A stretch of 64,000 bases of DNA from Patescibacteria group bacterium (GTDB taxonomy: Bacteria; Patescibacteriota; UBA1384; XYA2-FULL-43-10; 1-14-0-10-43-13), in contig JBAYVE010000002.1 of assembly GCA_041674765.1 (NCBI GenBank), positions 113,467 through 177,466 on the forward strand. The letters run 5' to 3'. Each line of letters begins with the position of its first letter. The first letter of the stretch is position 1. The translations under genes and the position numbers were made by a program. Under the pieces are notes generated by a model that was given only the letters and a program-made list of their open reading frames with translations, was not told the origin of the DNA and made no database searches. Below, piece by piece: positions 25,211-55,589 of the stretch.

Positions 25211-25636
25211 ATGGCAAAAGCAATAAAAGCAATTATAAAATTACAGTGTCCGGCTGGGAAGGCAAATCCTGCTCCTCCTGTTGGTCCTGCTTTGGGTCAG
25301 CATGGTGTGAATATTATGGAGTTTTGCCAACAGTTTAACGAAAAGACCAGAGAAAAGGGTGATACAATCATCCCTGTGGAAATCACCGTATATGAAGACC
25401 GTACTTTCTCCTTCATTATGAAACAGCCCCCGGCAGCAATCTTAATTTTGAAGGCACTCGGAATCAAATCCGGATCTGATAATTCCAAAAAGAAGAAAGT
25501 CGGAAAACTAACTCAGGCTCAGCTTGAAGAGATCGCAAAAGCCAAAATTGAGGATTTGAACGCAAATGACGTTGAAGCCGCAAAGAAGGTTATTGCAGGG
25601 ACTGCCAGAAGCATGGGTATTGAGATCGAAAAATAG
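25211..25636 (+). CDS. rplK: 50S ribosomal protein L11
   Basis: [38 protein letters not shown] is a canonical L11 sequence. Confidence 0.95.
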
Positions 25637-25665
25637 ACATCAAACTCGAAATATGATAGAAAAAA

Positions 25666-25697
25666 GAATCCCCCGAAATATCGTGGGATTCTTTTCT
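25666..25697 (+). terminator. Rho-independent terminator after rplK
   Basis: GAATCCCccgaaatatcgtGGGATTCTTTT. Confidence 0.55.
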
Positions 25698-25808
25698 TAA
25701 AGTAGGTGCCGTCTGTGATTTGAAAGTGAAAGGAGGGGCAACACTTTGAAAAATCACAGACAACACTAAGTCAATAAAAACTTAGCATTTAATGATAGTG
25801 CTTGTCAA

Positions 25809-27653
25809 ATGATGGAAAAATCTCTTTTCATAAAAGTAGGAAGAAATCATACTCCAAATAAATTAGCCTCAGAGCTGATCGTATTAGGTTATGATAGGTC
25901 AGACGGGCAGACGTTAAAACCAGGGCAGTTTTTTAATATCGGTGATCTCTTTAAACTATATAATATTAATGATGGTTTGCCCCTGAAAATTGATTTTTTT
26001 GGAGACGAAATAGAGAGGATGTCCTATTACGATCAAGTTACCGGTAAAAAAGTATCGGACACCAATTCTATTGAGATCTTGCCCAATATACTTTTATTGC
26101 CTGATAAAACAATAATTCATGTAGATGATTATGTGGTCCACGACGATCATGGGATTGGTCTTTTCGCTGGTTTTGAGAATAAGAATGTTGACGGTGAAAT
26201 AATAAAATATGTTTTGATAAAGTATTTAAAGGATGACCTTCTATACTTGCCGATAAATCAACTTATTAAGTTGACTCCATATATAGGAATCGGTAGAAGA
26301 AAGCCGAAGTTGAATCGGCTAGGAAGCGGAAGCTGGACCAGAACCTATAAAAAAACGTATGAAGATATCATAAAAATGGCCAGAGAACTTCTTCTAATCT
26401 ATGCCGAAAGAGAGGTAACAAGAAGACCTAGCTATAAAATTAATCCTGAATGGAATGCTGTATTGGAGTCAAACTTTGGATTTGATGAGACTATCGACCA
26501 GGTAAAAGCAATCGAAGAAGTTATGAATGATCTTTCATCGGAGAAACCGATGGATCGTCTAATTTGCGGTGATGTCGGCTTTGGCAAAACAGAGGTAGCT
26601 ATCCGGGCTGCAGCTCAGGTCATTGCTAATGGCGGCCAAGTGGCATTGCTCGTTCCGACAACCATCTTAGCGGAGCAACACTTCACAACTTTATCAAAAA
26701 GATTTGCTGCTTTACCGGTGAGAATAGAGAGAGTTAGCCGTTTTATTGATGGTCAATCACAAAATACAATTCTAAAAGATCTGATTGACGGCCGGGTAGA
26801 CTTGCTAATTGGCACGCATCGTCTTCTTTCCGAAAAGATAGTCTTTCGAAATTTGAAGCTCGTAATTATTGATGAAGAACAAAAGTTTGGTGTCAAACAT
26901 AAGGAAAAGCTCAAAGATATTAATAAAGAGGTAGATGCCCTAACTCTCACAGCAACACCAATACCGCGGACACTATTCATGTCTCTTTCAGGTATTAGGG
27001 ATATATCGATGATCGCTTCATCTCCGGCAGGTCGAAAATCAGTTGATACTGAAGTTTCGAAATTTGATGAGTCAAAAATCAAGAAATATATTGATAGGGA
27101 ACTTAGCAGAGGCGGCCAAATATATTATCTGCATAACGAAGTCTCAACTATTAACGGCAAGAAACGAAAACTTGATAGATTGCTGCCGGGATTGAGAATT
27201 GAAGTTGCGCATGGCCAGATGGGCGAGATGGCTTTGGCAAAAACAATGTCAGCCTTTGCAAGGGGAGATATAGATGTATTAGTGTGTTCTACTATTGTTG
27301 AGAATGGCCTAGACCTTCCCAATGTGAACACTTTGATCGTCGAAAACGCAGATAAATTTGGTCTATCTCAACTTTATCAGATCCGAGGCAGGATCGGCCG
27401 TAGCAAGAAGCAGTCTTATGCTTTGTTTACTTTTCCTCAAAAAGAAATTACTGCCAATGCAGTAAAGAGACTCAAGGTATTGGTTGAAAATACGGAGTTA
27501 GGTACGGGGTATAATATTGCACTTCGTGATTTAGAGATAAGGGGTGGCGGCAATATTTTGGGTAGAGATCAACATGGTAGTATGGAGGCAGTCGGATTGG
27601 TTCTTTATTCCAAGCTGCTAAAAATGGCGGTAGAGAAGATCAAAGAGGTATAG
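25809..27653 (+). CDS. mfd: transcription-repair coupling factor, short form (Mfd lacking N-terminal UvrB-homology domains)
   Basis: Has a CarD/TRCF RNAP-interaction segment (DYVVHDDHGIGLF). The superfamily-2 helicase motifs are GFGKTEVA, IIDEEQKFG and TATPIPRT. At 614 aa it is about half the length of E. coli Mfd. Confidence 0.8.
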   Translation: MMEKSLFIKVGRNHTPNKLASELIVLGYDRSDGQTLKPGQFFNIGDLFKLYNINDGLPLKIDFFGDEIERMSYYDQVTGKKVSDTNSIEILPNILLLPDKTIIHVDDYVVHDDHGIGLFAGFENKNVDGEIIKYVLIKYLKDDLLYLPINQLIKLTPYIGIGRRKPKLNRLGSGSWTRTYKKTYEDIIKMARELLLIYAEREVTRRPSYKINPEWNAVLESNFGFDETIDQVKAIEEVMNDLSSEKPMDRLICGDVGFGKTEVAIRAAAQVIANGGQVALLVPTTILAEQHFTTLSKRFAALPVRIERVSRFIDGQSQNTILKDLIDGRVDLLIGTHRLLSEKIVFRNLKLVIIDEEQKFGVKHKEKLKDINKEVDALTLTATPIPRTLFMSLSGIRDISMIASSPAGRKSVDTEVSKFDESKIKKYIDRELSRGGQIYYLHNEVSTINGKKRKLDRLLPGLRIEVAHGQMGEMALAKTMSAFARGDIDVLVCSTIVENGLDLPNVNTLIVENADKFGLSQLYQIRGRIGRSKKQSYALFTFPQKEITANAVKRLKVLVENTELGTGYNIALRDLEIRGGGNILGRDQHGSMEAVGLVLYSKLLKMAVEKIKEV

Positions 27654-27899
27654 AGTCAAAAGTATTCAGTATAAGTTATAAATATACTTTGCAAGGATAA
27701 CACGAGAATGTGCTCTTAGGTACTTGGAAGGAGCAATATAGCTGCTTGAAGACAAGTTAAGATTGGCAAACGAATTCTTTCGGGAGGACTATTTGTCCAA
27801 ATTTGCTATAATATAGAAAATGGAGGGATTATCGATACTAAATATTTACTTGCTTTAAATGCTCACCCGAAGATCGGCAGTCAAACTCTCAAAAAGATT

Positions 27900-28910
27900 T
27901 TGGCAGCTTTCGGCGATCCTGCAAAGATATGGAAGGCTGAATCTGTAACTAATCAAGTTAAACTTGATGAAAAAATTATGGCTCTGGTTAGAGAGTGTAG
28001 GAAGAACTATGATCCAGACCGAGAGCTTCTGAAGTTGGCCAAATTGGATTTGGGATATGTTACGTTGTATGACAAAGAATATCCAGCACTGCTGAAAGAA
28101 GTGTATGATGGCCCGGTGGTTTTATACATTCGAGGCAATGCATCAGTTTTGAATACCCAGTCTCTTGCTGTTGTGGGGAGCAGAAAGTTCACTAACTATG
28201 GCAAGAGAATCGCATATTCATTGGCCAAAGAATGCGCCTTGGCCGGCTTGACCATCGTTTCTGGCCTCGCCCTGGGAATTGATGCTGAGGCTCATCAAGC
28301 GGCGCTTGATGTCGATGGCATCACCATTGGGGTCGTCGGGAACGGGCTCGACCGTATCTACCCTGTCAGCAACTACGATCTGGGTCGAAAGATCATTCAA
28401 AAAGGCGGAGCAATAATTTCTGAATTTCCACCGGGTACGCCACCTATGAAACATAATTTTCCGGCGAGAAATCGTATTATCGCAGGCCTCTCACAGGGTA
28501 CTTTGGTGATTGAGGCCGCCTCTCAGTCCGGTGCTCTGATCACCGCTATTCAAGCGTTGGAATATAATAGGGAAGTCTTTGCGATCCCCGGCAATATTGA
28601 TTCCCCGACTTCAGAGGGTACAAATGCCCTGATCCAAAAAGGGGCAAAATTGATTACAAAAGCAGAAGATGTTCTGGTTGAATTAAATGTCGAAGTTAAA
28701 AACCACCAAGCTAAAGCCAAAGCAATTTTGCCCGATACCGAAGAGGAAAGCCAGATAGTTGAGACACTAAAAAGAGGTGAAATGCTCGCCGATGAAATTA
28801 TTAGGGTCACCGGCTTAAATGTGATCCTTGTAAACTCGACATTGACAATGATGGAGATGAAGGGAATAATAACAAATCTGGGCGGGGGAAGATATTGTTT
28901 GATCAAATAA
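27900..28910 (+). CDS. dprA: DNA processing protein DprA (Smf)
   Basis: Rossmann-fold DprA core (VVGSRKFTNYGKR…GLALGIDAEAHQ…FAIPGNIDS). The first canonical start is the TTG at 27900, but conserved N-terminal sequence continues in-frame upstream (see finding). Confidence 0.85.
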   Translation: MAAFGDPAKIWKAESVTNQVKLDEKIMALVRECRKNYDPDRELLKLAKLDLGYVTLYDKEYPALLKEVYDGPVVLYIRGNASVLNTQSLAVVGSRKFTNYGKRIAYSLAKECALAGLTIVSGLALGIDAEAHQAALDVDGITIGVVGNGLDRIYPVSNYDLGRKIIQKGGAIISEFPPGTPPMKHNFPARNRIIAGLSQGTLVIEAASQSGALITAIQALEYNREVFAIPGNIDSPTSEGTNALIQKGAKLITKAEDVLVELNVEVKNHQAKAKAILPDTEEESQIVETLKRGEMLADEIIRVTGLNVILVNSTLTMMEMKGIITNLGGGRYCLIK

Positions 28911-29098
28911 CTAAAGTTTGTAAAGAATAATATTAGTTAGGATTTTTCGTTAGGTTTTCTTTATAGCTTTGAACTATATAAACTTTATCAACCTTCAACT
29001 TTATAAACTTTATAAACTCTCTTATTTGAATAAAATCCTCTCTTCTGTTAATTTAAGTAATAGTTTCAAAAACCAAAACAAAATAATTTAAGGAATAA

Positions 29099-31201
29099 AT
29101 GAATTTAGTAATCGTTGAGTCGCCGGCAAAGGCAAAAACAATTGAGAAATTTCTTGGCAAGGATTATAAGGTTCTTGCTTCTTTTGGCCACGTCCGTGAC
29201 TTGCCGCAGAAGTCCCTTGGTATAAATGTTGAAAAAAATTATGCTCCTGAATATTCGATTCTACCAAAGGCGAAGAAAACTATCTCAGATCTCAAGGGCT
29301 ATGCGGATAAGGCGGATATAATCTATCTGGCAACCGACTTAGACCGTGAAGGGGAGGCAATCTCCTGGCATCTGGCAGAAGCGTTGAAAATCAAGGATAA
29401 AGGTAGATCAAAAAGAATTGTTTTTCATGAGATCACCAAATCTGCTCTGGAAAAAGCGGTCCAAAATCCTCGGGACCTTGATATGAATTTGGTTGATGCG
29501 CAGCAAGCCAGAAGAGTTTTAGACAGGCTCGTCGGTTATAAACTTTCTCCCTTTCTCTGGAAAAAGGTAAAAGCCGGATTGTCAGCCGGACGCGTCCAAT
29601 CCGTGGCAGTCAGATTAGTCGTTGAGAAAGAACGTGAAATCATAGCTTTCAAACCGAGGGAATTCTGGGTTTTGGGGGTAGATTTATCTAAACAAAATAA
29701 CAAAAAAGTATTCTCGGCATACCTTGTTGAAATTGACGGTAAAGGTATGACAAAGTATGACATTGGTGATAAAAAAGCTGCTGATCTGATTGAAAAAGAT
29801 CTAAAAGATGCGTCTTACAAAGTTCTTGATGTCAAGGAAAAGGAAAGCATTCGCAAACCCTCGATTCCTTTCACAACATCCGCTCTTCAGATCGAAGCTT
29901 CGAGGAAGCTTGGTTTTTCGCCAAAGCAGACGATGATGCTGGCACAACATCTTTATGAGGCAGGTCATATTACCTATATGCGTACTGACTCAACTAACTT
30001 ATCGGACGAGGCGTTATCTGCTATTCAAAAAGTTATCATCGGTGAATTCGGCCAGAATTATTTGGAGTCCAGAAAATTTAAGACTAAGGCCAAACATGCA
30101 CAAGAGGCTCACGAGGCTATCCGTCCTTCGCATTTTGAAAATAAAAAGGTAACAGACGATGCGCGCGGTCAAAGACTTTATGATCTAATCTGGCGCCGAA
30201 CGGTAGCCTCCCAAATGAAAGATGCAATTTTCACAGTCATCAATGCTAGAATTAGTGCAAAGACAGCTAAAGAATTCATTTTCTTAACCAGCGGCGAGAA
30301 AATGAAATTTGACGGCTTTATGAAAGTTTATGTTGAGAGTTCAGAGGAAGAGGAGATAAAGGAGAGCACAATTCCGGCGCTTGCAGCGGGTGAAATTCTT
30401 GACTTCCACGAACTAATTAAAGATCAGAAATTTACAGAACCGCCAAAACGCTACTCTGAGGCTATGCTTGTCAAAAAGTTAGAAGGTCTCGGAATTGGCC
30501 GTCCATCGACTTATGCGCCGACCTTGGAGACTATTCAGCATAGAGGATATGTAATTTTAGAGGAGAAGAGGTTTAAGCCCCAGGAAATCGGCATGATCGT
30601 AACTGATCTATTGGTTGCCAACTTCCCCCAAATCGTAGATTACAAATTTACTGCAGAGATGGAAGATGAACTTGATGATATCGCGGACGGAAAACGTGAA
30701 TGGGTCTCGGTCATCGACGAATTTTATAAACCTTTTGAGAAAAATTTAGAGGTGAAGAGCAAAGAGATCAATAAAAAAGATATCATCAAAGATGAAATTT
30801 TGGAAGAAAAATGTCCCGAATGTGGTGAGCATCTGGTTATCAAACTGGGCCGTTATGGCAAATTTATTGCCTGTTCCGGATATCCGAAATGTAAATATTC
30901 GAGGCCTCTGGAGATTAGCGCTGAGGAAAAAGTGGAGGCAGCGGGCGAGGTTTGTGAAAAATGCGGGGGAAAGATGATTTTGAAAGAGGGTCGTTTTGGT
31001 AAATTCCTAGCCTGCGAAAATTATCCTAAATGCAAGAACACAAAACCGATTTCAAGCAAGACTGGTATTAAATGTCCCAAATGTGATAGTGGTGAGCTGG
31101 TTGAGAAGAAAACCAAAAGAAGAAGAACTTTTTGGGGTTGCTCGCGTTACCCGGAGTGCGATTATGCAACTTGGGAAGACCCGGCCAAAAAACCCGAATG
31201 A
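29099..31201 (+). CDS. topA: DNA topoisomerase I with C-terminal zinc ribbons
   Basis: Toprim N-terminus (MNLVIVESPAKAKTIEKFLG). There are three C-terminal C4 zinc fingers. Length is 700 aa. Confidence 0.9.
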   Translation: MNLVIVESPAKAKTIEKFLGKDYKVLASFGHVRDLPQKSLGINVEKNYAPEYSILPKAKKTISDLKGYADKADIIYLATDLDREGEAISWHLAEALKIKDKGRSKRIVFHEITKSALEKAVQNPRDLDMNLVDAQQARRVLDRLVGYKLSPFLWKKVKAGLSAGRVQSVAVRLVVEKEREIIAFKPREFWVLGVDLSKQNNKKVFSAYLVEIDGKGMTKYDIGDKKAADLIEKDLKDASYKVLDVKEKESIRKPSIPFTTSALQIEASRKLGFSPKQTMMLAQHLYEAGHITYMRTDSTNLSDEALSAIQKVIIGEFGQNYLESRKFKTKAKHAQEAHEAIRPSHFENKKVTDDARGQRLYDLIWRRTVASQMKDAIFTVINARISAKTAKEFIFLTSGEKMKFDGFMKVYVESSEEEEIKESTIPALAAGEILDFHELIKDQKFTEPPKRYSEAMLVKKLEGLGIGRPSTYAPTLETIQHRGYVILEEKRFKPQEIGMIVTDLLVANFPQIVDYKFTAEMEDELDDIADGKREWVSVIDEFYKPFEKNLEVKSKEINKKDIIKDEILEEKCPECGEHLVIKLGRYGKFIACSGYPKCKYSRPLEISAEEKVEAAGEVCEKCGGKMILKEGRFGKFLACENYPKCKNTKPISSKTGIKCPKCDSGELVEKKTKRRRTFWGCSRYPECDYATWEDPAKKPE

Positions 31202-31295
31202 TTTTTTGGAATTTCTAGATGCAGATCCCTCGGCAGGTTTTCAACCGCTCGGGACGACAGAGGCGCTGCGATTTCTAAACAAATCCTAATGACCG

Positions 31296-31445
31296 TGATT
31301 CCAAAAACCTTGCTATTACCCTGTTTATTATTGTTCGAGGAGGAACGACGAGAACTTTGGTCATTTGTTAGTATGGTGACAGACTTCTCATTTTTAAGAG
31401 CACCATTCGAAGAATAAATACATTTGATGGGTTTTAGGGAATTAC
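31296..31445 (-). mobile_element. MITE-like 150-bp repeat element, copy A (inverted relative to copies B and C)
   Basis: The reverse complement matches copy B (35687-35838) nearly base-for-base, including gttctcgtcgttcctcctcgaacaata. The ends are tgattccaaaaacc and gggttttagggaat. Confidence 0.6.
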
Positions 31446-31526
31446 TGCCAATGATTTAATTTCTAGATGACAAAATCTGAGTTTAAAAATTGAATAAAAA
31501 TTAAGAATTAAAAATTAATAATTTTA

Positions 31527-32126
31527 ATGTTGCCAACAAGTATCCAAAATCTAATCGATGAGTTCTCAAAACTTCCGGGAGTAGGGCCGAAAAGTGCGGC
31601 AAGACTGACCTTTTATCTGCTTACCAAGCCAAAAGGCGATATAGAGCAGCTTGGCAGTTCTGTTTTAAATTTGGCTCGGAATTTGAAATATTGTAAAGAG
31701 TGTTTTAATATTTGCGAAAACGATCTTTGTCAGATTTGTGCCGATGATCGTCGGAACCACCAGATTGTGATTGTTGTAGAAGAGCCTCTTGATGTTTTGG
31801 CGTTGGAAAAATCGGGCGGAATAGACGGAATTTACCATGTTCTTGGAGGCGTGATTTCTCCGATTAATGGCATCGGTCCGGATGATCTACGTATCAGTCA
31901 GCTCCTCGACCGGCTCGACGAAAGTGAAGATTTGGAAGTAATTTTGGCCACCAATCCAAACCTAGAAGGTGAAGCGACCGCAACTTATGTTAAAAACAAA
32001 ATTGCAGCATTGGGCAAAAATATCAAAATCACCAGAATCGCCCGGGGATTGCCTATCGGTGGTGATCTCGAATATGCCGATCAGGTCACTCTGAAACGAT
32101 CTCTCGAAGGAAGACGCGAATACTAG
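31527..32126 (+). CDS. recR: recombination protein RecR
   Basis: Has a helix-hairpin-helix (PGVGPKSAARL), a C4 zinc finger (CKEC…CQIC) and a Toprim domain. Confidence 0.9.
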   Translation: MLPTSIQNLIDEFSKLPGVGPKSAARLTFYLLTKPKGDIEQLGSSVLNLARNLKYCKECFNICENDLCQICADDRRNHQIVIVVEEPLDVLALEKSGGIDGIYHVLGGVISPINGIGPDDLRISQLLDRLDESEDLEVILATNPNLEGEATATYVKNKIAALGKNIKITRIARGLPIGGDLEYADQVTLKRSLEGRREY

Positions 32127-32357
32127 ATCCACCTTCGGTGGAATTTTTAAGTCCTAATTTCTAATTTTTAATCAAATTATAATTAAAAAATTAAAAATTC
32201 AATAAAAATTAAGAACTAAAAATTAAGAAATTATTTCGCATCAGACAAGCAAAAGCAATGCGCTAAATAGTTGGGGATAAGTTTACTTGACATTACCGAA
32301 AAATCACCGCTAAAATCGTTTAGTTAGCTTAAAATTAAAAACAAAAAAAGAGGTCAA

Positions 32358-32591
32358 ATGAGGGTCGAAGATAAATACTGTTGCCCCAATCCGGATTGTG
32401 CTTATATCGATTACAATGATGGCGAATGTCCTGAGTGCGGGAAAAAATTAGACAAAATAAAGGGTGATGAGTATCTTGCCTCCAATGATAATTTCGAGGA
32501 TGATAAAATTCAGCCGTTGGTATCGGATTTTGACGATGACCCTGATATGTGGTACGTAGATGGGGCTGACGAACAACTTGGCGCTATGTAA
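32358..32591 (+). CDS. small zinc-ribbon protein with acidic C-terminus
   Basis: AGAGG RBS. Contains CCPNPDC…CPEC. Confidence 0.5.
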   Translation: MRVEDKYCCPNPDCAYIDYNDGECPECGKKLDKIKGDEYLASNDNFEDDKIQPLVSDFDDDPDMWYVDGADEQLGAM

Positions 32592-32724
32592 TTGATAAAG
32601 TCCAACAAGATATAAAATTGAAAATTTAATAAAGTCTAACAAATAAAATAAATCGCTTCATCTACCTGAGGCGATTTTATTTTAGAATCATTTGTGCTAG
32701 GATTAGGGTAAAATTAAGGAGAAA

Positions 32725-34074: not shown

Positions 34075-34176
34075 AGCTTAAAGCGAAAAGCATAAAGCCT
34101 AAAGCCGAAAGCGAAAAGCTTAAAGCATAAAGCAGAAAGCATAAAGCATAAAGCAGAAAGCATAAAGCATAAAGCG
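34064..34176. repeat. heptamer/nonamer tandem array (NNAAAGC)n, left arm of an inverted repeat flanking the four-helix-bundle gene
   Basis: ttaaagcataaagcttaaagcgaaaagcataaagcctaaagccgaaagc…cataaagcataaagcg. The array starts inside the cysS 3' end. A partner array with reversed polarity lies at 34541-34569 (ggctttcggctttgagctttttgcttta). Confidence 0.6.
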
Positions 34177-34182
34177 ATTGTG

Positions 34183-34536: not shown

Positions 34537-34576
34537 TGGAGGCTTTCGGCTTTGAGCTTTTTGCTTTAAACTTATT

Positions 34577-35626: not shown

Positions 35627-35686
35627 GGTCTATCGTTCGAACAAGGTGAGAACTAATCTATTTTTACGTGAGAACAAAACAAAACC

Positions 35687-35838: not shown

Positions 35839-35850
35839 AGAACGAAACTA

Positions 35851-35879
35851 TTGACAAGATAATAATCTTATGGTAATAT
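35851..35879 (+). promoter_or_regulatory. candidate promoter abutting MITE copy B (TTGACA-N17-TAATAT)
   Basis: ttgaca at 35851-35856 and taatat at 35874-35879. It would drive the structured leader and the GC-rich gene pair at 36352-38450. Confidence 0.4.
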
Positions 35880-39883: not shown

Positions 39884-39891
39884 CAAATAAA

Positions 39892-47600: not shown

Positions 47601-50600
47601 TATAATTCCGGACGAGCAATGTATAGTAAGCATTTTGATGCATCTACCAGCCGATGGGGGATTGATTACTCGATTGGAACCGAAGGATCACAACCTTCTC
47701 CGAGCATTGCGGTAAATCCTTCCAACAATGATATTTATGTGTTTTTGATTGCTAGCAACAACAGTGTTAAATACTACAAATGGGCCCTATCGACTGATCC
47801 AGAAGTACCTTCGTCTTGGGAACTTGTCGATAATATTTATAGCACAGGCACTAATACAGGTGTTTCTGTTAGTGAATATGTTTCAGGGTATAAGCTTGGA
47901 ATGATATGGACCAACGGCACTGGCTCTCCTTATACTGTTTATGCTGATTCCTTAAATTTTATTACATATGGTACTTTGAGTGGTACTGTTTACACGGATC
48001 GTACGGCAGCTACTCATGCTGGTGCCGGTGTGCAGGTCAGATTGGTAATCGATGGTACTTTAAACGAAGAAGTTGCTACTACCGATGAGAATGGCGCTTA
48101 CTCTTTTGTAACAGAGGTTGGGACGAACGATAACGTCCTAATATTTGCTGATCCTAGCGCCGGCAATATTTATGGAAATGTCGTGATGACTGCAAGCGGT
48201 GCAGATTTAACGGGCATCGATATTTACGGTAATGCTGTTATTGCTAGAAACGAAACGGCTTCGCAGGTTACAAATGAAACATTTCAAGCTGCTCACGGCT
48301 CTCTCACAGAGACAGGGATATTGTATTCCTCCGGGTTACCCATCGATTCGTCGGTGGATGGAACTTATTTTGACCTTTTGGTTTGGCCTGGCAAGAGTAT
48401 GACAGCTAGTGCGGACGTTCGTGTTGAAGATCTTGTGATAGGTACTGGTGCTACTCTAAGTGGAATGGCCTCTGCAGGTGAAAATGCATTTATGGTTTCC
48501 GGAGACTTTGTGAATAATGGTACTTTTGTTGCCAATCAGCAAAAGCTTATAGTTGAATGCTACGAAGGCTTTTGTAATGGCAGCAGTTCCCAAATTGTCA
48601 CTACTGGGGGAACCAATGCCACCTTTTACGATATTGATATTTCTAAACAGATTGGAGATTCTGTAATTATCGATGGAGACCTTAAAATTACACATGATCT
48701 CAATGTGATACACGGAACAATTGATTTGCTCACAAATACCCCTGATATAGATCTTTCTAATGATCTCTATATTTATACAAATGGTGATATGACAACAATG
48801 CCAGGAGATCTAACTTTTCTTGGGGACAGTGAATCCGAGCTGAGATTGATGAATTCTGATGTTTTTAGCCATATCATCATCGGCGGAGGAGAGGGCAAAA
48901 TTTTATCGTTGATCACATCATCCCTCTTGGCTGATACATTTACTATCAATGCCGGCAATATTTTCAAGCCGCCATACGAAGCGACGGCCACGATCAATGT
49001 GAATTGGGAAAATTATGGTACTCTTGATACTTCAAGCGGAAACTTGGCGTTGGTTTTAGAAGGTTCCGCGGAATCAAAAATATACGGCAACAATACTTTT
49101 TCTCAATTTTACTGCACAACCCCTGATAAAACGATTAAATTTGAAAGTGGTAAAACTCAAAATATTACCGGTGCTTTGAATATTACTGGTACCTCTGGGC
49201 ATAATGTTGTCTTGGCAATGCAGGGCGGGACTTCTGGTGTCGACTTTTGGAATATCGATCCCGATACCAGCTCTAGGACGGTTGATTACGTTAAAGTTAC
49301 TGATTCGACAAATTTAGACGAAGTTTATATCGATCCTCCAAATTACGATCCGGAGAGCAGCCATACTGTAAATTGGTTTCCAGCCGCTCCAACGGTAACA
49401 ACAGGAGCAAAGGATTCTTATCTAACGACGGATTTTTCATCCGACTGGATTGAGGCAAAGGGATCCATCACTGCTACTGGAGGTAAAAATCCGACTATTC
49501 GGGGTTTAAAATATAGCACTGTTGGCGAGCAGGACGATAGCTCTTCGTTTGACAGCGGTGATTACTCAACAGGCGATTTCACAAAAACTCTTTCCAATCT
49601 TGAAGTGAATACTCTCTATTATATCCGCGCCTATGCTACAAATACCGGCGGGACAGGTTACGGCAGCTGGATTTCAATGTATACCAAGGCCAATACTCCG
49701 GGCATTTCCGTTGCCGGGGATTATGACGAGGTCAGCGGCTATCATCTGGACGCTACTATTTCGCCGAATCTAAATTCCGATGGTACAGAATATTACTTGC
49801 AATATTCAACCGACGGAACCAATTTTTATGATCCAACGGGAATGGCTTGGGGGCAGACTGAAAAATCATACATTTTCACAACTGATAAAGACGGTGCTCA
49901 TATTCAACCATATACCCAATACTGGCTAAAGGTTAAAGCTCGAAACGGGGATAATATCGAGACCGACTATTCATCTTCATCAGCCGATGTTACGCCGCCA
50001 GCTGCACCAACAATAACAAATCCGGCAGTTTCAAATATCTGCAGCACTACAGCAACTGTGTCTTGGACAGCTTCCGTAAGTGGGGACAAATACGACCTAT
50101 CTTATGGTACTGATGCTAGCGCCAGCAATACCGCAGTTATCAATAATATCGCAACAACTAGTTATGAGTTGACGAATTTAGTAGAAGGTGACAAGTATTA
50201 TTTCAAAGTAAGGGCAGTTTCGAATGCAAATGGAACGGGTGCTTATTCATCAATTTCTGATCCTTTTACTCCAACAGCATGTGTGGCTCCTATTGCGCCA
50301 AATGATTTTTCGGGGACCCCTGCTTCAGCCTCAAGTATTGATTGGTCCTGGACTGATAGCTCGACGATCGAAACGGGCTACAAAGTGCATAATTTGACGC
50401 ATAGTTCTTTGTCCGGCGATCTTCCTGCAGATTCTATTGCCTGGAGCGAACAAAGTTTGGAAGTCAATACTGCGTATACTCGCCACGTTAATATTTTTAA
50501 CGAGATAGGCAATAATGATTCAAATTCGGCCACGGTTTACACAAAAGCAAATACTCCGGGCCAACCATCGGTTAACCAAATTGATTCAATTTCCTTAAAA

Positions 50601-53600
50601 GTTATTGTTTCTGAAGGGACAGATAATCCAAGCTATACCCATTATGAAATATATGAAACAACTACCGGTAAATATGTCAGGCAAAGTGATGGCACGCTGC
50701 AAGCAACTGAGGATTGGCAAACTTATTCCGGCTGGGGTGGAGCGAGTGGAATAACAATCAACGGATTAGACAGCAATACAAGCTACACCTTCCAAGTTCG
50801 AGCTGCTAACAAAGCTGCTATGGGTCTAGACAATGTTTTGACAGATTGGTCTGCTAGCACAACCAATTCGACTTATCCAAAATATTCTATAACTATCTCT
50901 ATAGACGGCACGGGAGAAGGCACTGTTTCTCCTTCCGCTGTTGATCCGGTCAATAGAGGAACAAGTGTTGACCTTACAGCCTCTCCATCGATTAACTCAA
51001 ATTTCACAACTTGGACCGGATGCACCTCTGTATCTGGCAATGTTTGCCATCTTTCCAATATTACTTCGGACAAATCTGTCACAGCTACTTTTGCGATCAA
51101 AACTTTCACCGTCCAGATATCCAAAGCAGGAAACGGAGCTTCCGTAAGTGATACTTCGCCAAATACAGAGCAGACAGTAAATTATGACGGAAGCATCGAC
51201 ATCACGGCTTTACCCCATATTTCAGCGAACTTTACCTCCTGGTCTGGATGCGATTCTGTCGAAGGTGCAGTCTGTCACCTCACAAATATCACATCCAACA
51301 AATCTGTCACAGCTACTTTTGCGATCAAAACTTTCACTGTTGCGGCAACATCCACCGGTTGTGGTTCGGTTTCAAACTCTTCGCAAGCAATAAATTACGG
51401 CTCGGATTCTGCTGTTATGACCTTCATTCCAAACTCAGGCTGCTATGTCTTCAATGTTGTCGCCGATGGCGATTCAGTCGGTTCGCCATCTTCCAAACAA
51501 TTTACAAATATCACACAAAATCATACCGTCGACGTGGAATTTCGTGAATATCCTACGGCAACGCTATCGATTAATTCCGGTAGCCTAAAAACCAATCAGG
51601 ATACAGTATCATTATCAATAACCCACAATACTACTGCCTTGGAAATGAAAATATCAAATAGCTCTGATTTAACGGGTGCAGAGTATACGCCGGTTCGATC
51701 ATCTATTAGCAATTGGATTTTGGCCGATTCATCTAACGACGGCGTTAAGACGGTCTATCTAAAGGTGAAAGACTCAGTTGGCCATGAGTCTGGAGTGGTT
51801 TCCGCCACCATATCACTCGATAAAACTCCGACTGATGCCCCGCTTAACTTAGTGGCTGTTGGCGGTAAAACCACTACTTCTCTCTCCTGGAAGAATCCTG
51901 TGGCCACCGACTTTACAAAAATGGCGGTTTTTCGTTCTACATCGCCGAATTTCATTCCGGATCTGGGTGCAAACAAGATCGGCGACACCAGAAATAACCT
52001 TGAGCATAGTTATATCGATACCAACGTAGCCAATGGTGTTCTTTACTATTATCGGATAAAAGCAGTTGATGATGCTGATAATTATTCAATATCCTCTAAT
52101 GAGGCATCAGCAAAAGCTGATAACGATCTACCTTCCGCACCAGGTCTGCCGACAATCACCGAAAAAACAAACTCAATTGATGATATAGAGTACACAAATA
52201 GGGGAAATAATACGATAACATGGCCAGCCTCTACAGATCTTAACTCTGGCTTGAAGCATTACTCAATTATGCTTACCATACCCCCGCTAGCTTCGAACAA
52301 TTGCGCTGAAACCACTACCGCTAATTCCCTAACATGTAATTTTTCAGATGGTATCTATAGTATCGCCGTTCAGGCACATGACAATACCGGTAATTCCAGT
52401 GCTTTCTCGCAAACATTATATTTTAATGTCGATACGTCAGCCCCGACGCTGACTGAACCACTTAGTATCTCCGATGCTCCTACCGATAGGTCAGCGCTCG
52501 ATTACAAAGCGCTTCTCTCGTGGAGCAAAGCTTCAGATGGCAATACGGGCGGTATCAGCAGCGGAATACTGGGCTATATCGTCTATCGGTATGAAGATCC
52601 GATCTTACTTCCAAATCAAATAGTAACGAAGGTCAGTACTGATTCCAGCGGAAATCCAAGCTATGTTGACGCAATTACCCCTGATAAAAACTATGATTAT
52701 TCGGTGCTTGCTGTAGACAAAGCAATGAACCGCTCGAGTAAAATCTCAAATAGTATAAATGTTGCCGGAATATTGCCAGGGGAGGGAGAACTGATAATCT
52801 CTGATATAACATCAACACCATCTGATCAGATGGGAGAGAAAACATTTGCTACTATTTCGTGGAAAACATCTGTTCCTTCTACCAGTATGGTCAGTTATGG
52901 TCTTGATACCGGTTATTCTCTGCAATCTCCACTTGACACCGGTCTAAATACGATCCATACAATGGTACTTAGCGATTTGGAGTTCAGCAAAACTTATCAC
53001 TTCAAAGTTTTCTCCGAGGCGGCAAATGGAGATCGTGCAAATTCTGATGATTACACTTTTACTACCAAGGATATCTTGAAGGATGATGATGTCTGGAGTG
53101 TTATACCAGGGGTGATTATTCGAATTGACGATGTTATTTCAAGAATAATCAATGAAATCAACGTTCGAGGGACTGCGCAGACTGTAGCCTTGCCTGTCGC
53201 TAGTTCGGCTGCTGTAGTTGCGGCATCTGGGGCAGCTGCTGCCGCTGCGCCGATTGCCAATGCGATGACCCTCTTTTCATTCCCAGAATATTTACGGGCA
53301 TTGTTATATTCAATATTATCAATCGGTTCAAGGCGTAAAAGGCGGGAATGGGGCAAGGTTGTCGAAGAGGGGACTGGCATCCCGATCGCACAAGCACGGC
53401 TAAGCCTGATTAGGTTGGAAAAGAATATTGCCGGTAACCCAATTGAAAAGATAGTTGCAACTACATATTCTGACAAGAAGGGCAATTATGCTTTCATCGC
53501 GGAGAAAGGTTCCTACCGTCTCTCAGTAGATAAAGATCTTTACAAAGTCTCGAATCTAAAGGACGTTTATCATCCCTCTGATGTTATAAAGGTAAAGGAA

Positions 53601-54116
53601 GACAAAGAAGGGCTGATTATTCCAAGTATCGTCCTTTCGATGGACAGCCATTCTGCAAAAAAGAAATTGTTGAGTTTAAATAGACTTAGTAAGTTTGAAA
53701 AAGTACTTTTCTATGTTTCCCTGGTCTTCCTGATTTTCGGCACTTATACATCGATACTAAATCTTCTAGCCAATCCCCGAAATCCGCTGAACTTTCTGAT
53801 TATTATTTATCCGATTCTCTGGGTTGTTACTCTGGCGAGTTTATTCAAAGTCTCCCCATGGGGCAATGTCGTTGATAAAACAAATTCTCAGGGTGTTTCA
53901 TTGGCTTTGGTTAGGATTATGGATAAAGGCGGAAAAGTGCTCGTAAAGACAGCAATTACCGACCAACAGGGCAAATACCAGACCACCGTGCCTAAAGGTG
54001 AGTACAAGATTCTGGTAGCCAAACAGGGCTACTTCCAAGCTGAGCCGGAGACCTTGAATGCGACAAATGAACTAAATGCTTTGAACAAACAGATTGAGGT
54101 CGTTCAAAGAAATTAG
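44622..54116 (+). CDS. giant (3164 aa) membrane-anchored surface protein with repeated beta-propeller-like, fibronectin-III/Ig-like and carboxypeptidase-regulatory-like domains
   Basis: An N-terminal TM is present. There are about 15 units of LYVGGSF…AGG…IAKWNG..WSALG (~50 aa). These are followed by fn3-like blocks (TPPAAPTITNP…VSWTAS) and a near-duplicated segment (CHLSNITSDKSVTATFAIKTFTV and CHLTNITSNKSVTATFAIKTFTV). The C-terminus has 3-4 TM segments flanked by CarbopepD_reg-like motifs (DKKGNYAF…GSYRLSV; DQQGKYQTTVPKGEYKILV). Confidence 0.8.
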   Translation: MNPDQFKNLDRLDQELARIQRSTKTSWRFFAAPHDWLRMKFRWYYKWHLNPWAQMVHKFSFGLVTAGILLIVLTQFGLFDFNQSTKAAAVSVDTSTTGEATNNSSQRKTFTDTVNNTQWAFYNNGEAIEYSYSSDGSSWVSAGTLAHNTQYFSTNYKAISGAGYVLLATECNTYDVCIYQGSLTGTSISFGSAATVFDGVSLSNNYSRPTVTYDGDNYIWVGAVKDFGNSSPDHLQAQTKKSSSANNISGWGSVLTAGNKMKILTNVIILNQSGSSMYLVASNGSSVTGFKYTTEVPVWTSANDGGEAAWFEFGDGGFSAAVNAVAISGTDVYVGGSFIKIDSLTTNFIAKWNGSSWSTLGSGVGGPVYALEVVGTDLYVGGSFNSAGAVAVNNLAKFNTLTSEWSSVGGGVVGVEENSAIVYSLIESNSSLYIGGSFVLAGETSAKSIAKWDIAAESWSALGNGLIDMNDSTAIVRSIAIDGSSVYAGGMFVQAGEVAANVVAVWDGNSWSSMGSPQMDMAMTVAIYNSEVYIGGLGWSEGNAAKWNGSAWEYINFTSEVRTLVVNDGKLYAGGGFQALGEDSFKFIAVYNGVSWSGLEQDLNNTVSQLTFSGNDLYTVGSYTAAGTVAAKYFAKYSDGQWQAQGSVGGIDGDVNTIAVDDSNNIYIGGTFRTAGGISANRIAKYDGDTWSALGTGTSGEVKVIKVVDDIVYVGGSFASAGGEATSNIASWNPATSTWSALGSGTDSTVYTLADFGSSLYAGGNFSTAGGGAASKVATWNMTAGTWSALGSGVNDLVLSVATDPEGNLYVGGSFTSPGSKIAKWNGLEWSALGTGVNNLVRSLIFVDSKLYVSGHFTTAGGVSSNLVAMWDGENWNSMGLAGSVVYTIAADASNNIYASVPTNGNRSAQVKWNGEVWDNYSNGFAGSGVYSSLFIGDRLYIGGSTTVFSSYGMSGTSLGYLENAIARSTDSGSEVSAVTDSLGNIHLAYSAWYNSGRAMYSKHFDASTSRWGIDYSIGTEGSQPSPSIAVNPSNNDIYVFLIASNNSVKYYKWALSTDPEVPSSWELVDNIYSTGTNTGVSVSEYVSGYKLGMIWTNGTGSPYTVYADSLNFITYGTLSGTVYTDRTAATHAGAGVQVRLVIDGTLNEEVATTDENGAYSFVTEVGTNDNVLIFADPSAGNIYGNVVMTASGADLTGIDIYGNAVIARNETASQVTNETFQAAHGSLTETGILYSSGLPIDSSVDGTYFDLLVWPGKSMTASADVRVEDLVIGTGATLSGMASAGENAFMVSGDFVNNGTFVANQQKLIVECYEGFCNGSSSQIVTTGGTNATFYDIDISKQIGDSVIIDGDLKITHDLNVIHGTIDLLTNTPDIDLSNDLYIYTNGDMTTMPGDLTFLGDSESELRLMNSDVFSHIIIGGGEGKILSLITSSLLADTFTINAGNIFKPPYEATATINVNWENYGTLDTSSGNLALVLEGSAESKIYGNNTFSQFYCTTPDKTIKFESGKTQNITGALNITGTSGHNVVLAMQGGTSGVDFWNIDPDTSSRTVDYVKVTDSTNLDEVYIDPPNYDPESSHTVNWFPAAPTVTTGAKDSYLTTDFSSDWIEAKGSITATGGKNPTIRGLKYSTVGEQDDSSSFDSGDYSTGDFTKTLSNLEVNTLYYIRAYATNTGGTGYGSWISMYTKANTPGISVAGDYDEVSGYHLDATISPNLNSDGTEYYLQYSTDGTNFYDPTGMAWGQTEKSYIFTTDKDGAHIQPYTQYWLKVKARNGDNIETDYSSSSADVTPPAAPTITNPAVSNICSTTATVSWTASVSGDKYDLSYGTDASASNTAVINNIATTSYELTNLVEGDKYYFKVRAVSNANGTGAYSSISDPFTPTACVAPIAPNDFSGTPASASSIDWSWTDSSTIETGYKVHNLTHSSLSGDLPADSIAWSEQSLEVNTAYTRHVNIFNEIGNNDSNSATVYTKANTPGQPSVNQIDSISLKVIVSEGTDNPSYTHYEIYETTTGKYVRQSDGTLQATEDWQTYSGWGGASGITINGLDSNTSYTFQVRAANKAAMGLDNVLTDWSASTTNSTYPKYSITISIDGTGEGTVSPSAVDPVNRGTSVDLTASPSINSNFTTWTGCTSVSGNVCHLSNITSDKSVTATFAIKTFTVQISKAGNGASVSDTSPNTEQTVNYDGSIDITALPHISANFTSWSGCDSVEGAVCHLTNITSNKSVTATFAIKTFTVAATSTGCGSVSNSSQAINYGSDSAVMTFIPNSGCYVFNVVADGDSVGSPSSKQFTNITQNHTVDVEFREYPTATLSINSGSLKTNQDTVSLSITHNTTALEMKISNSSDLTGAEYTPVRSSISNWILADSSNDGVKTVYLKVKDSVGHESGVVSATISLDKTPTDAPLNLVAVGGKTTTSLSWKNPVATDFTKMAVFRSTSPNFIPDLGANKIGDTRNNLEHSYIDTNVANGVLYYYRIKAVDDADNYSISSNEASAKADNDLPSAPGLPTITEKTNSIDDIEYTNRGNNTITWPASTDLNSGLKHYSIMLTIPPLASNNCAETTTANSLTCNFSDGIYSIAVQAHDNTGNSSAFSQTLYFNVDTSAPTLTEPLSISDAPTDRSALDYKALLSWSKASDGNTGGISSGILGYIVYRYEDPILLPNQIVTKVSTDSSGNPSYVDAITPDKNYDYSVLAVDKAMNRSSKISNSINVAGILPGEGELIISDITSTPSDQMGEKTFATISWKTSVPSTSMVSYGLDTGYSLQSPLDTGLNTIHTMVLSDLEFSKTYHFKVFSEAANGDRANSDDYTFTTKDILKDDDVWSVIPGVIIRIDDVISRIINEINVRGTAQTVALPVASSAAVVAASGAAAAAAPIANAMTLFSFPEYLRALLYSILSIGSRRKRREWGKVVEEGTGIPIAQARLSLIRLEKNIAGNPIEKIVATTYSDKKGNYAFIAEKGSYRLSVDKDLYKVSNLKDVYHPSDVIKVKEDKEGLIIPSIVLSMDSHSAKKKLLSLNRLSKFEKVLFYVSLVFLIFGTYTSILNLLANPRNPLNFLIIIYPILWVVTLASLFKVSPWGNVVDKTNSQGVSLALVRIMDKGGKVLVKTAITDQQGKYQTTVPKGEYKILVAKQGYFQAEPETLNATNELNALNKQIEVVQRN

Positions 54117-54129: not shown

Positions 54130-54279
54130 TGATTCCGAAAACCCTAATAAACGTATTTATTCTTTAAATGGTGCTCTTAAAAATGAGAACTTCTGTCACT
54201 GTACTAATAAGTGACAGAAGTTCTCGTCGTTCCTCCTCGAACAATAAGAAACAGGGAAAGGGTAAGGTTTTCGGAATCA
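54130..54279 (+). mobile_element. MITE-like 150-bp repeat element, copy C (perfect 14-bp TIRs)
   Basis: Begins 14 bp after the giant-gene stop. The 5' TIR is tgattccgaaaacc and the 3' TIR is ggttttcggaatca. There is an internal perfect hairpin (CTTCTGTCACtgtactaataaGTGACAGAAG). Confidence 0.65.
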
Positions 54280-54564
54280 CGTTTGATGATTATTGACAGC
54301 TTACTTAAATTATGATAAATTAATAGAGTCCAAAGACCACTAGCCTTCGCTAAAACTACAGCCGGCAAACCAGCCCGGATAGCGATAGAAGTCTTGTGCA
54401 GGAATTCCGTTAGTATAGAGTAAATATTATTGATATATGTCTATCAGCATTCTGCTGCCATCATATACAATAAATTTTATACTTTCTTGATTTCTGCGCT
54501 AGTCGCAGATTTTTTTAAATAGAGTCACAAAAAAGTAACGAAATTTACGAAAGTAAAGGAATTC

Positions 54565-55083
54565 ATGGCAAAAACAAGAGAGAAAAAAGAGGAATTGATT
54601 GCTAGATTAGAAGAGGAAATTTCTGGTGCCAAAGCTGCAGTGTTAGTTGACTACAAAGGTCTGAAAGTCAAAGAAACTGAGGATTTGAGGAACGCTTTGC
54701 GTGAGAAGGGCATTAGTTTCAATGTTGCTAAAAACTCCTTGGTTAAAATCGCTTTAAAGAAAAATGGGATTACTTTTGAGGAAGGTATCTTCAAAAAACC
54801 TATTGCGATCGCTTTTGGCAAAAACGATGAGGTTGCCGCTGCAAAAGAGATAGATCTTTTCGCAAAGAAACATGAGGCCATGGAAATTCTTGGCGGAATT
54901 CTTGAAAAGAAGATGATTGATGCTGAAATGGTCAAGAAATTAGCTTCCTTGCCATCACGCGAAGAGCTTTTGGCCAAAATGGTCGGATCGATCGCTTCAC
55001 CACTATCCGGCATGGTCAACGTTCTTGCCGGCAATCTTCGGGGTTTGGTCAACGTGTTAAAAGCTGTAAACAACAAGCAGTAA
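54565..55083 (+). CDS. rplJ: 50S ribosomal protein L10
   Basis: MAKTREKKEELIARLEEEISGAKAAVLVDYKGLKV is a canonical L10 sequence. Confidence 0.9.
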   Translation: MAKTREKKEELIARLEEEISGAKAAVLVDYKGLKVKETEDLRNALREKGISFNVAKNSLVKIALKKNGITFEEGIFKKPIAIAFGKNDEVAAAKEIDLFAKKHEAMEILGGILEKKMIDAEMVKKLASLPSREELLAKMVGSIASPLSGMVNVLAGNLRGLVNVLKAVNNKQ

Positions 55084-55103
55084 TCTTATAAACTGAGTAT
55101 AGT

Positions 55104-55144
55104 GTCATTCTCGGGCAGGCAACGCCATGACCCGGGAATCCAAT
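55104..55144. repeat. GTCATCC-type palindromic element (copy between rplJ and rplL)
   Basis: gtcattctcgggcaggcaacgccatgacccgggaatccaat. Confidence 0.5.
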
Positions 55145-55181
55145 ACATTAGGTTAATTAAAAACGTTTAATAAGGAGAATC

Positions 55182-55589
55182 ATGGAAGAGAAGAAAGAAG
55201 TAGAGGTTCCTGAGAAATTCAAGGATCTCGTCGAAAAAATTGAGAAATTAACAGTTCTCGAATTGGCAGAACTTGTAAAAGTTCTCGAAGAGAAGTTTGG
55301 TGTCTCAGCCGCTGCTCCAATGATGATGGGCGCGATGCCTGCCGCTGGTGCCTCATCTGAGCCAGTTGAAGAGAAAACAGCATTTGATGTTGTTCTGACT
55401 AGCGCAGGCGCACAGAAGATCAACGTTATCAAAGCTGTTCGTGAAATCAAGCCAGAACTTGGTTTGAAAGAAGCCAAGGATTTAGTTGATGCTGCTCCAA
55501 AAGATATCTTGAAAGGTGCTAAGAAAGAAGATGCTGAAGCTGCAAAGGCAAAGCTTGAAGCTGCCGGCGCAACTGTCGAAATGAAATAA
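55182..55589 (+). CDS. rplL: 50S ribosomal protein L7/L12
   Basis: AAGGAGA RBS. Has an Ala-rich hinge. The C-terminal domain runs [24 protein letters not shown]…[14 protein letters not shown]. Confidence 0.95.

Follow-up and report, generated by a model that had tools for sequence, protein, structure and literature searches.

A twice-broken rplK–rplA–rplJ–rplL cluster in Berkelbacteria-like Patescibacteria and a putative L1-binding RNA beside rplA

In Escherichia coli, the genes for the four ribosomal proteins considered here lie in the separate promoter-driven units rplKA and rplJL–rpoBC, and it is established knowledge that L1 and L10(L12)4 act as repressors via leaders that mimic rRNA, with the L11 leader as the target of L1 feedback (PMC3616713). 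The L1-interacting RNA described by Fu et al. (2013; PMC3616713) has an asymmetric internal loop within its stem, critical G residues (GGGAG) and a variable closing hairpin. It is positioned before rplA or before rplK, and L1 binding has been measured in Geobacillus kaustophilus. RNAs of this class overlap or adjoin the ribosome-binding site, have nM affinity for L1 and repress translation. The RNA precedes rplA in Actinobacteria, Cyanobacteria and Chloroflexi, dual sites are present in Firmicutes, and Candidate Phyla Radiation (CPR) bacteria lay outside the 2013 survey. Here, we compare with these systems a locus on contig JBAYVE010000002.1 of a Patescibacteria group bacterium; the whole 64,000-nt stretch that was analysed is called the window, and the loci fetched for comparison carry L-numbers. 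On the forward strand of the window, rplK (25211–25636) is followed by an 18-kb block of other genes, then by rplA (43617–44423), a giant gene (44622–54116), rplJ (54565–55083) and rplL (55182–55589). The gaps are 17,980 bp from rplK to rplA and 10,141 bp from rplA to rplJ, compared with tens to a few hundred base pairs in the canonical contiguous cluster.

We consider it likely that in this lineage, the Berkelbacteria-like Patescibacteria, the cluster would be expressed as three independent transcription units, the outcome of an old translocation and of a permissive slot for other genes. The first unit would be secE–nusG–rplK, with its own terminator and no L1 operator. The second would be rplA alone, with its own promoter, an L1-binding, rRNA-mimicking RNA that abuts the Shine–Dalgarno sequence and its own terminator; excess L1 would presumably block initiation on the rplA mRNA only. 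The third would be rplJ–rplL, with its own promoter, an L10-type leader containing a terminator/antiterminator attenuator and its own terminator. The separation of rplK from rplA would be a translocation fixed in the lineage ancestor, in which the break fell between rplK and the L1 operator and the operator travelled with rplA. The rplA–rplJ junction and, to a lesser degree, the pth–rplA junction would form a terminator-to-promoter slot, in which genes can be gained and lost with neither unit disturbed. In the window, the slot would hold a self-promoted giant surface-protein gene, probably an old resident of the crown group of the lineage with a fast-changing ectodomain, and a miniature inverted-repeat transposable element (MITE) would have inserted there later.

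Gene order in the window and in its relatives

A first-pass annotation, made from the letters of the window alone, had described the ribosomal block as broken twice. Family scans with NCBIfam and Pfam and the resulting coordinates bear this out, and all of the genes that it named are found where it had placed them. The L11 gene is matched by TIGR01632 at 208.8 bits. The L1 gene is matched by TIGR01169 at 176 bits, below the 216-bit cutoff, and by Pfam Ribosomal_L1 at 2e-34; its product is MFA7253442.1, and its nearest named relatives are 'Candidatus Berkelbacteria'. Upstream of rplK lie ileS, rodA, rplU, secE and nusG, of which nusG is called by NCBIfam and secE was read by eye from the sequence and is called SecE in relatives. 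The segment secE–nusG–rplK (24277–25636) is the left remnant of the classical cluster.

To place this gene order, we retrieved the surroundings of L1 homologues in species-representative genomes and metagenomes (160 loci), mapped the window proteins onto them and measured the gaps. Each of two contig scans with an L1 alignment gave three loci of the window's clade among the matches listed, and the Saccharibacteria and Firmicutes loci became the outgroup sample. In 87 mostly non-CPR loci, the rplK–rplA gap has a median of 72 bp, the value also obtained for a control of 71 mostly non-CPR loci, and never exceeds 1.5 kb; for such loci, the rplA–rplJ gap has a median of 254 bp and is below 700 bp in 45 of 49. 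Saccharibacteria-like loci keep nusG–rplK–rplA adjacent and separate rplA from rplJ by more than 1.5 kb in 32 of 33 cases, with a median of 5.1 kb. In the clade of the window, rplK is absent from the 10 kb upstream of rplA in all nine loci, where the order is instead pth–rplA, and the rplA–rplJ gap has a median of 291 bp. The L1 proteins of these relatives are 57–79% identical to that of the window.

Between the two genes lies a conserved 17-kb block (25809–43104), identified by NCBIfam and Pfam matches and by an order that is kept in relatives. On the rplA side, the order cysS–dus–(two ORFs)–(DUF11/CLIPPER ORF)–prfB–(M50B-like)–ybaB–pth–rplA, where ORF denotes an open reading frame, is common to L003, L007, L010, L011, L090, L172, L173 and others. 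On the rplK side, L169–L171 share ileS–rodA–rplU–secE–nusG–rplK–mfd–dprA–topA–recR–x–cysS–dus, although no cysS is called between recR and dus in L170. Both ends of the block are present on a single 671-kb contig of GCA_964543385.1, about 17 kb apart. The first-pass annotation had proposed a local insertion or rearrangement at this break, a proposal that does not survive the comparison, as the 18-kb order recurs gene for gene in every sampled relative. Because these relatives share the order without the MITE or the palindromic element of the window, the 18 kb is not an insertion in this genome; the comparison points instead to an ancient rearrangement that was fixed before the clade diversified. 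The annotation had also allowed that the same order might be ancestral across the whole phylum. Our synteny comparison supports this for the lineage and contradicts it for the phylum: Saccharibacteria keep rplK beside rplA, as do two other Patescibacteria metagenome-assembled genomes (MAGs), L056 and L061, which retain nusG–rplK–rplA, so the rplK–rplA break is a trait of this lineage rather than of the phylum. A literature search of limited reach found no description of such a split in CPR bacteria.

RNA elements before rplA and rplJ

The predicted promoter of rplA (43525–43553, from a promoter scan) consists of TTGCTA, a 17-nt spacer and TGtTATATT with an extended −10, and the other clade loci have a TGTTATAA-type −10 at an equal distance from rplA. 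Downstream of it lies a putative L1-binding RNA (43570–43605) of the form (U)GUGG / GA / hairpin / GUUUGCA / CCAC(A), whose end at 43605 abuts the Shine–Dalgarno sequence AAGGAG (43605–43610), with the ATG at 43617. This element was recognized by aligning the 120 nt upstream of rplA from ten clade loci, and a covariance model, R1, was built from those ten only. All of the ten contain (U)GUGG–GA–[G...variable hairpin...C]–GYUNKNA–CCAC(A), followed by AAGGAG and the start codon. The structure comprises a 5-bp helix P1, a 5′ bulge GA, a hairpin P2 and a 7-nt 3′ loop (GYUNKNA). In the alignment, 93.8% of the cells are paired, versus 33–56% when the partners are slid, and P2 contains four covarying pairs.

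With filters off, R1 gives a single match in the window, at 43570–43605, with 45.6 bits and an E-value of 7e-9; the next best hit has 11 bits. In other CPR loci, the model yields 37 matches at E<0.05, all on the + strand and upstream of rplA, and downstream of rplK wherever an rplK match is present. The distance from the motif to the rplA start is also conserved: it is 7–12 nt in eight of the ten clade loci, and in 34 other CPR loci the proximal copy ends 5–14 nt (nearly all 9–14) before the start and is followed by AAGGAG. In non-CPR metagenome loci, R1 matches before rplA, before rplK or before both (L120), with the consensus GUGGGAG...CGUUuGUACCAC. Upstream of rplK, R1 finds no match in the window, even with filters off, or in L169–L171, and the 118-nt rplK leader (25093–25210) is thus without an L1 site. 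The first-pass annotation had left it to be checked whether an L1 motif is kept upstream of rplK or of rplA; it is retained before rplA and absent before rplK. Rfam gave no match at the gathering threshold over the whole window, and at E≤10 the three leader regions returned only chance-level miRNA, snoRNA, rseX and Leu_leader matches, none of which was accepted.

Compared with the published consensus by text description and by cross-detection, the window element has the structure of the L1-interacting RNA, lies at the rplA ribosome-binding site and is homologous to sites at established positions. The element at 43570–43605 is presumably an L1-binding RNA that mimics the L1 stalk of 23S rRNA. 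We take it to resemble the L1-stalk junction of E. coli 23S rRNA (GUGG...UUGAAAUACCAC) and the mRNA site of Methanococcus vannielii. The separation of the two genes was probably tolerated because the L1 operator of CPR bacteria already lay between rplK and rplA and controlled rplA only; presumably, L11 was never under L1 control in these organisms. Placed before rplA rather than rplK, the operator would let rplK leave without regulatory cost.

A second copy of the L1 motif, with its own Shine–Dalgarno sequence, is found in three Saccharibacteria loci (L045 9394–9429, L029 9569–9599 and L059 9436–9470), where it precedes an unrelated ORF of 75–81 aa inserted between rplK and rplA, and the duplicated operator may place a non-ribosomal ORF under L1 control. 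In L172, a degenerate site, GGTGAGGGGGTTTGACCACAG, without the P2 hairpin, lies at 9950–10000, and L1 control may have been lost in this genome. The L1 protein itself has an N-terminal extension of about 70 aa that is rich in Lys and Glu (43617–43825) and is kept across the clade, the Saccharibacteria version being rich in Ala and Lys; compared with Thermus L1, the L1 core shows small deletions in domain II.

Both rplK and rplA appear to be closed by terminators, and rplA (43617–44423) would be monocistronic. The first-pass annotation had already assigned rplK a terminator of its own, and the predicted intrinsic terminator (25666–25698; GAATCCC...GGGATTC followed by UUUUCUU) folds at −17.3 kcal/mol with a z-score of −5.9. 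In L169–L171, a hairpin and T-run of different sequence occupy the same place after rplK, so the stem covaries. After rplA, the predicted terminator (44471–44509) has a 14-bp stem and a weak T-run; the hairpin itself (44471–44502) folds at −20.1 kcal/mol (z −5.7), and the alignment reveals a hairpin and T-run directly after rplA in the relatives as well.

Regarding rplJ–rplL (54565–55589), the predicted promoter (54293–54321, from the promoter scan) consists of TTGACA, a 17-nt spacer and TGATAAATT, and a TTGAC-17-TGnTAnAnT promoter precedes rplJ in all clade loci, whatever the cargo upstream. It would start a leader (54322–54564) with the conserved blocks UCCAAAGACCACUAGC and AAGUCUUGUGCAGGA and, at 54493–54516, a predicted attenuator of a hairpin and U7, taken from the terminator scan. 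Every clade locus has the promoter, the leader blocks and the attenuator, invariably on the downstream side of the cargo. The attenuator hairpin is conserved in seven loci with two compensatory pairs, and an upstream UGCAGGA block can, as judged by eye, pair with its 5′ arm in an antiterminator geometry. RNAalifold on the whole leader recovers only the terminator, and the 5′ part is described from the conserved blocks by eye. The closest described family is the L10 leader RF00557, with which the leader shares its position upstream of rplJ, a 5′ block CCnAAGAC..AG and an intrinsic terminator at its end. This family scores 63–73 bits in our positive controls (four Firmicutes-type loci and the Saccharibacteria locus L016), and L173, a sister lineage, has a canonical RF00557-like leader, CCAAAGACAGCAGG...CCUGCCGAGGAUAAAA; the leaders of L173 and L016 are clearly of the RF00557 type. 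The crown-group leader, that of the window included, instead contains CCAAAGACCACnAGC ... GUCUUGUGCAGGA and stays below every reported threshold. The window leader is best read as a divergent L10 leader to which L10 would bind.

The third unit would be closed by a predicted terminator after rplL (55646–55669; terminator scan; −20.7 kcal/mol, z −6.4). The gene that follows rplL is tgt (55872–57206; spacer 55590–55871) rather than rpoB–rpoC, and the order rplL–(x)–tgt is seen in all clade relatives and in L056 and L061.

The slot between rplA and rplJ and the surrounding features

All of the variable content at the second break lies between the rplA terminator and the −35 box of the rplJ promoter. 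This slot is empty in five genomes (L003, L007, L011, L091 and L174) and holds small ORFs in three, namely one of 150 aa in L172, one of 134 aa in L010 and a set of three in L009. It is occupied by pgi in L173, and giant genes fill it in three cases: the window, L005 (5255 aa) and L090. The second break thus appears to be a variable slot between two complete gene units. The pth–rplA spacer also varies: L005 has seven paralogues there, L174 a methyltransferase-like ORF and the P0030 contig a glycosyltransferase gene. In Saccharibacteria, where a split between rplA and rplJ is likewise the rule with different cargo, the gap usually contains a dCTP deaminase gene (dcd) and a fused thymidylate kinase–ThyX gene (tmk–thyX) of about 780 aa; for example, these occupy 12771–15892 in L016 and 11534–14639 in L021, and they are present in most Saccharibacteria loci.

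In the window, the slot is filled by a 9.5-kb gene for a giant surface protein of 3164 aa (44622–54116, + strand). A promoter of its own, claimed by the first-pass annotation, can indeed be read from the sequence (44567–44596; TTGCAC, 18 nt, TGtTATAAT), although the scan tool does not list it, and a 9-nt periodic array (44506–44556) precedes it. The translation begins with a cytoplasmic segment and a transmembrane (TM) anchor (aa ∼5–90, TM at about aa 58–80), and Pfam matches comprise five Rax2 propellers, fn3, Flg_new_2 and CarboxypepD_reg. Its parts are an N-terminal TM anchor, beta-propeller repeats of the Rax2 type, fn3, InlB-B-type repeats and, at the C-terminus, TM segments read from the translation together with a CarboxypepD_reg module. 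Membrane anchoring, a length above 2000 aa and repetitive beta-rich extracellular domains place it among the giant CPR surface proteins, with a predicted adhesin role. The N-terminal anchor (...IQRST...LRMKF+WYYKWH...TM) is homologous in the three giants adjacent to rplA: identity is 50% over 66 aa between the window and L005, 59% over 139 aa between L005 and L090, and 38–50% from the window to these two. The ectodomains share only short patches at 30–37% identity. Within about 2 Mb of fetched loci, the anchor was found nowhere else. An exhaustive HMMER search of 1.84 billion representatives, which carry no genomic context, found it in at least 300 cluster representatives, almost always N-terminal, in proteins of up to 5015 aa.

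The history of the giant gene was read on a neighbour-joining tree of four proteins. The crown group, with 100% support, holds all three giants together with the giant-less L003, L010 and L172; L005 and L010 are sisters with 100% support, and L010 has no giant. The deeper branches L007, L173 and L011 also lack one, the L173 slot being that with pgi. The history that we favour, with less than even confidence, is that the gene arrived once, early in the crown group, and then underwent losses and turnover of its ectodomain. A bolder version, which we hold to be doubtful, is that the terminator-to-promoter gap has served since the crown-group ancestor as a lineage-wide landing pad for one orthologous giant, whose anchor of about 70 aa is kept and whose multi-kilobase ectodomain is repeatedly replaced or lost. 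If so, the landing pad would be a dedicated diversification locus for attachment to a host or partner, between two of the genome's most strongly expressed and most stable units. As part of a related reading, the crown-group rplJ leader may have co-evolved with an altered L10 site on a divergent CPR 23S rRNA. The nature of this slot is where interest in the locus remains, with relevance for ribosomal protein regulation and CPR genome evolution. In CPR bacteria, the flanks of rplA seem to form a slot of changing content in which giant surface proteins, the likeliest mediators of episymbiotic attachment, are repeatedly encoded.

A MITE is indeed present where the first-pass annotation had put it, at the giant gene's 3′ end (54130–54279, + strand). 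It is a 150-bp element with 14-bp terminal inverted repeats (TGATTCCGAAAACC / GGTTTTCGGAATCA) and a perfect hairpin inside; 13 nt separate it from the rplJ −35 box, and it lies at only one end of the giant gene. Three intergenic copies (54130–54279, 35687–35837 and 31295–31444) are 86–88% identical. The element thus agrees with the definition of a MITE, being shorter than 500 bp, non-coding, bounded by inverted repeats and dispersed in several copies. No clear target-site duplication is readable at the three copies, and no transposase ORF was noted in the window.

A second repeat is a 48-nt palindromic element, GTCATCCTCGGGCAGGCAACGCCATGACCCGGGGATCCAAT, which occurs in the spacers at 42332–42380, 55103–55150 (rplJ–rplL, inside the operon) and 55791–55840. 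Pieces of it also lie in frame in tgt (∼56184–56330), as an insertion of about 45 aa ('...VIPAEAGIQKTKELDPRVTVRPRATHGRGEPEDDTI...') that is absent from four relatives, and in dus (∼35300–35360; '...ENNELDPRVRPEDDTI...'), where it is absent from three relatives. The Tgt of L007 has a different insertion of the same flavour (CHSREGGNPE...). Spacer copies together with in-frame pieces inside coding sequences recall the Rickettsia palindromic elements, just as the 150-bp non-coding repeat with its inverted repeats and three intergenic copies recalls known MITEs. Unlike those elements, both repeats are, in the loci examined, restricted to this genome; neither was found in any relative across the ∼2 Mb that these loci comprise.

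Degenerate tandem arrays with a period of 7, 9 or 13/14 nt (for example AAAGCNU, CUUUAUAAA, GGAAUGU) are present in many spacers, often just past stop codons or ahead of promoters, and relatives have arrays of different sequence in the same kinds of place. In the window spacers they lie at 117–185, 1581–1630, 25103–25142, 28969–29022, 34050–34196, 44506–44556, 55590–55635 and 57184–57284. The ybaB–pth spacer contains an exact 69-nt direct repeat (42151–42219 and 42248–42316). In the pth–rplA spacer, 42-nt direct repeats of 83% identity (43112–43152 and 43482–43523) flank about 330 nt rich in fragments of the palindromic element. These direct repeats are scars of local duplication or insertion, and they make both spacers longer.

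Within the conserved block, the genes are, in order, a short mfd (25809–27653), dprA, topA, recR, cysS, an ORF for a four-helix-bundle protein of the 23S IVP type, dus, three ORFs, prfB, an M50B-like ORF whose assignment by the family scan is weak, ybaB and pth. The mfd product has only 614 aa and covers positions 310–820 of the 907-position TIGR00580 model with a score under the cutoff; a short mfd (611–627 aa) is also present beside rplK in three relatives. Between the rplK terminator and mfd, a hairpin at 25705–25768 folds at −22.6 kcal/mol (z −3.7). Its loop AAAGGAGGGGCAA is invariant in four genomes, and its stem covaries (GUCUGUGAU/AUCACAGAC versus GCUAUC/GAUAGC). It has no Rfam match and may represent either a leader of mfd or a small RNA. 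The three ORFs at 36352–39883, called a GC island in the first-pass annotation, are fast-evolving and encode secreted or surface proteins. Two of them (36352–38450; 420 and 279 aa) have signal-peptide-like N-termini and a GC content of 0.52–0.54 versus 0.42 for the window. We rejected a recent horizontal island, as positional equivalents in four relatives (L003, L007, L172 and L173) have similarly raised GC, 8–13 points above their own loci. BLASTP finds no similarity between the window proteins and these equivalents, and the pair is GC-rich and hypervariable at a conserved position.

Alternative explanations and comparison with known systems

Every sequence used here is a MAG or a metagenome contig, and the breaks might therefore be artefacts of assembly or binning, such as chimeric contigs. 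We give this explanation practically no weight, since the junction between rplA and the giant gene is identical in two contigs, one of 222 kb from ENA and an independent one from Logan that belongs to a different run, and was thus assembled separately from two samples. The 18-kb order also recurs on contigs of 93–971 kb from NCBI, JGI and ENA, and GC skew and coding strand are uniform through the region. The first-pass annotation had taken the repeats at the junctions as a sign of repeat-mediated rearrangement or insertion, in which case both breaks would be local, fairly recent products of recombination or transposition. Repeats are indeed close to the breaks: the 13-nt periodic array at 25103–25142 lies upstream of rplK, the 9-nt array follows rplA, the MITE separates the giant gene from rplJ, palindromic elements occupy the ybaB–pth, rplJ–rplL and rplL–tgt spacers, and the 42-nt direct repeats stand in the pth–rplA spacer. 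However, the relatives that have the first break gene for gene contain none of these repeats, and the giants of L005 and L090 have no MITE. As most of the window's intergenic spacers contain periodic arrays, repeats at the junctions are expected and are not a cause. A possible integration target was also sought with a tRNA scan, which found none. In summary, there is no support for repeats as the cause of either break, the idea is largely refuted for the first, and we judge it highly improbable overall. A broken operon in a MAG from an under-sampled phylum should be compared with relatives before an insertion is invoked.

A further alternative is that the motif preceding rplA does not work as an L1 operator and is instead a generic element of translation initiation or stability, or resembles rRNA without regulatory use. 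The window copy alone folds no better than shuffled sequences (z −1.1), the invariant P1 contributes no evidence from covariation, and L172 lacks a good copy. However, across very distant bacteria the motif is found only before rplA or rplK, on the coding strand and abutting the Shine–Dalgarno sequence; it fits the published stem, asymmetric internal loop and critical G residues; and each duplicated copy in the three Saccharibacteria is again followed by a Shine–Dalgarno sequence. We regard this alternative as improbable. For the giant gene, the competing history is that a mobile or often transferred family landed independently in three lineages at a hot spot. Cargo elsewhere in the slot is unrelated (pgi, small ORFs and, in Saccharibacteria, dcd with tmk–thyX), L010 is without a giant despite its sister L005, and the ectodomains have little in common. 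Against this, anchor identity roughly tracks the species tree (59% between L005 and L090, 38–50% to the window), the best non-self anchor matches listed (43–54%) are no closer than the L005 giant, and no transposase, integrase or repeat pair flanks the giant gene. We consider independent landings rather unlikely.

The three-unit reading, with its old translocation and old giant resident, also has points against it. Promoters, terminators and operator function are predictions from sequence, and the window holds no rRNA gene with which its own 23S L1 stalk and L10 site could be compared. The L172 site is only degenerate and gives no model match, so control by L1 may be dispensable. RF00557 finds nothing in the rplJ leader of the window, either at its gathering threshold (44 bits) or at E≤10, and nothing in that of L003. 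The clade is sampled by 13–14 genomes, mostly MAGs, and several inner nodes of the tree have 31–73% support. On this tree, the number of events required is about the same for an old resident with losses and for independent insertions. A search of the enlarged rplA–rplJ gaps of L009, L010 and L003 for giant remnants gave nothing below E=1, and repeated arrival is possible, as the anchor family is large.

With three units and a permissive slot as the preferred reading, the locus can be set beside the systems described at the outset. The split is a real departure from the canonical cluster, yet it is largely explained by an old translocation and a permissive slot, with known autoregulatory RNAs beside their genes. 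Compared with E. coli, a distance of 18 kb separates rplK from rplA, a 9.5-kb gene lies between rplA and rplJ, and tgt takes the place of rpoBC after rplL. L11 could not be coupled to L1 in this arrangement, because the L1 site precedes rplA and not rplK. The RNA described by Fu et al. (2013) shows the same motif, placed in the same way with respect to the Shine–Dalgarno sequence, and the clade-only model recovers non-CPR sites; their RNA lies in the rplK–rplA spacer of a co-transcribed pair, whereas here it would head a stand-alone rplA transcript. The L1-binding RNA would thereby be extended to CPR bacteria of the Berkelbacteria-like and Saccharibacteria groups, along with a divergent L10 leader missed by Rfam. 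The locus offers a natural case in which to see autoregulatory RNAs restrain, or leave unrestrained, the break-up of a highly conserved gene cluster. Lastly, the lineage converges on the layout of the archaeon M. vannielii, in which rplK is likewise unlinked and an L1-binding structure stands directly before rplA (PMC3616713); rplA, rplJ and rplL are adjacent there, as in the five genomes of the clade whose slot is empty. In contrast to M. vannielii, rplA in the lineage has its own predicted terminator and rplJ its own predicted promoter and L10 leader, so the three genes would not form one operon, and the archaea-like layout arose independently within bacteria.

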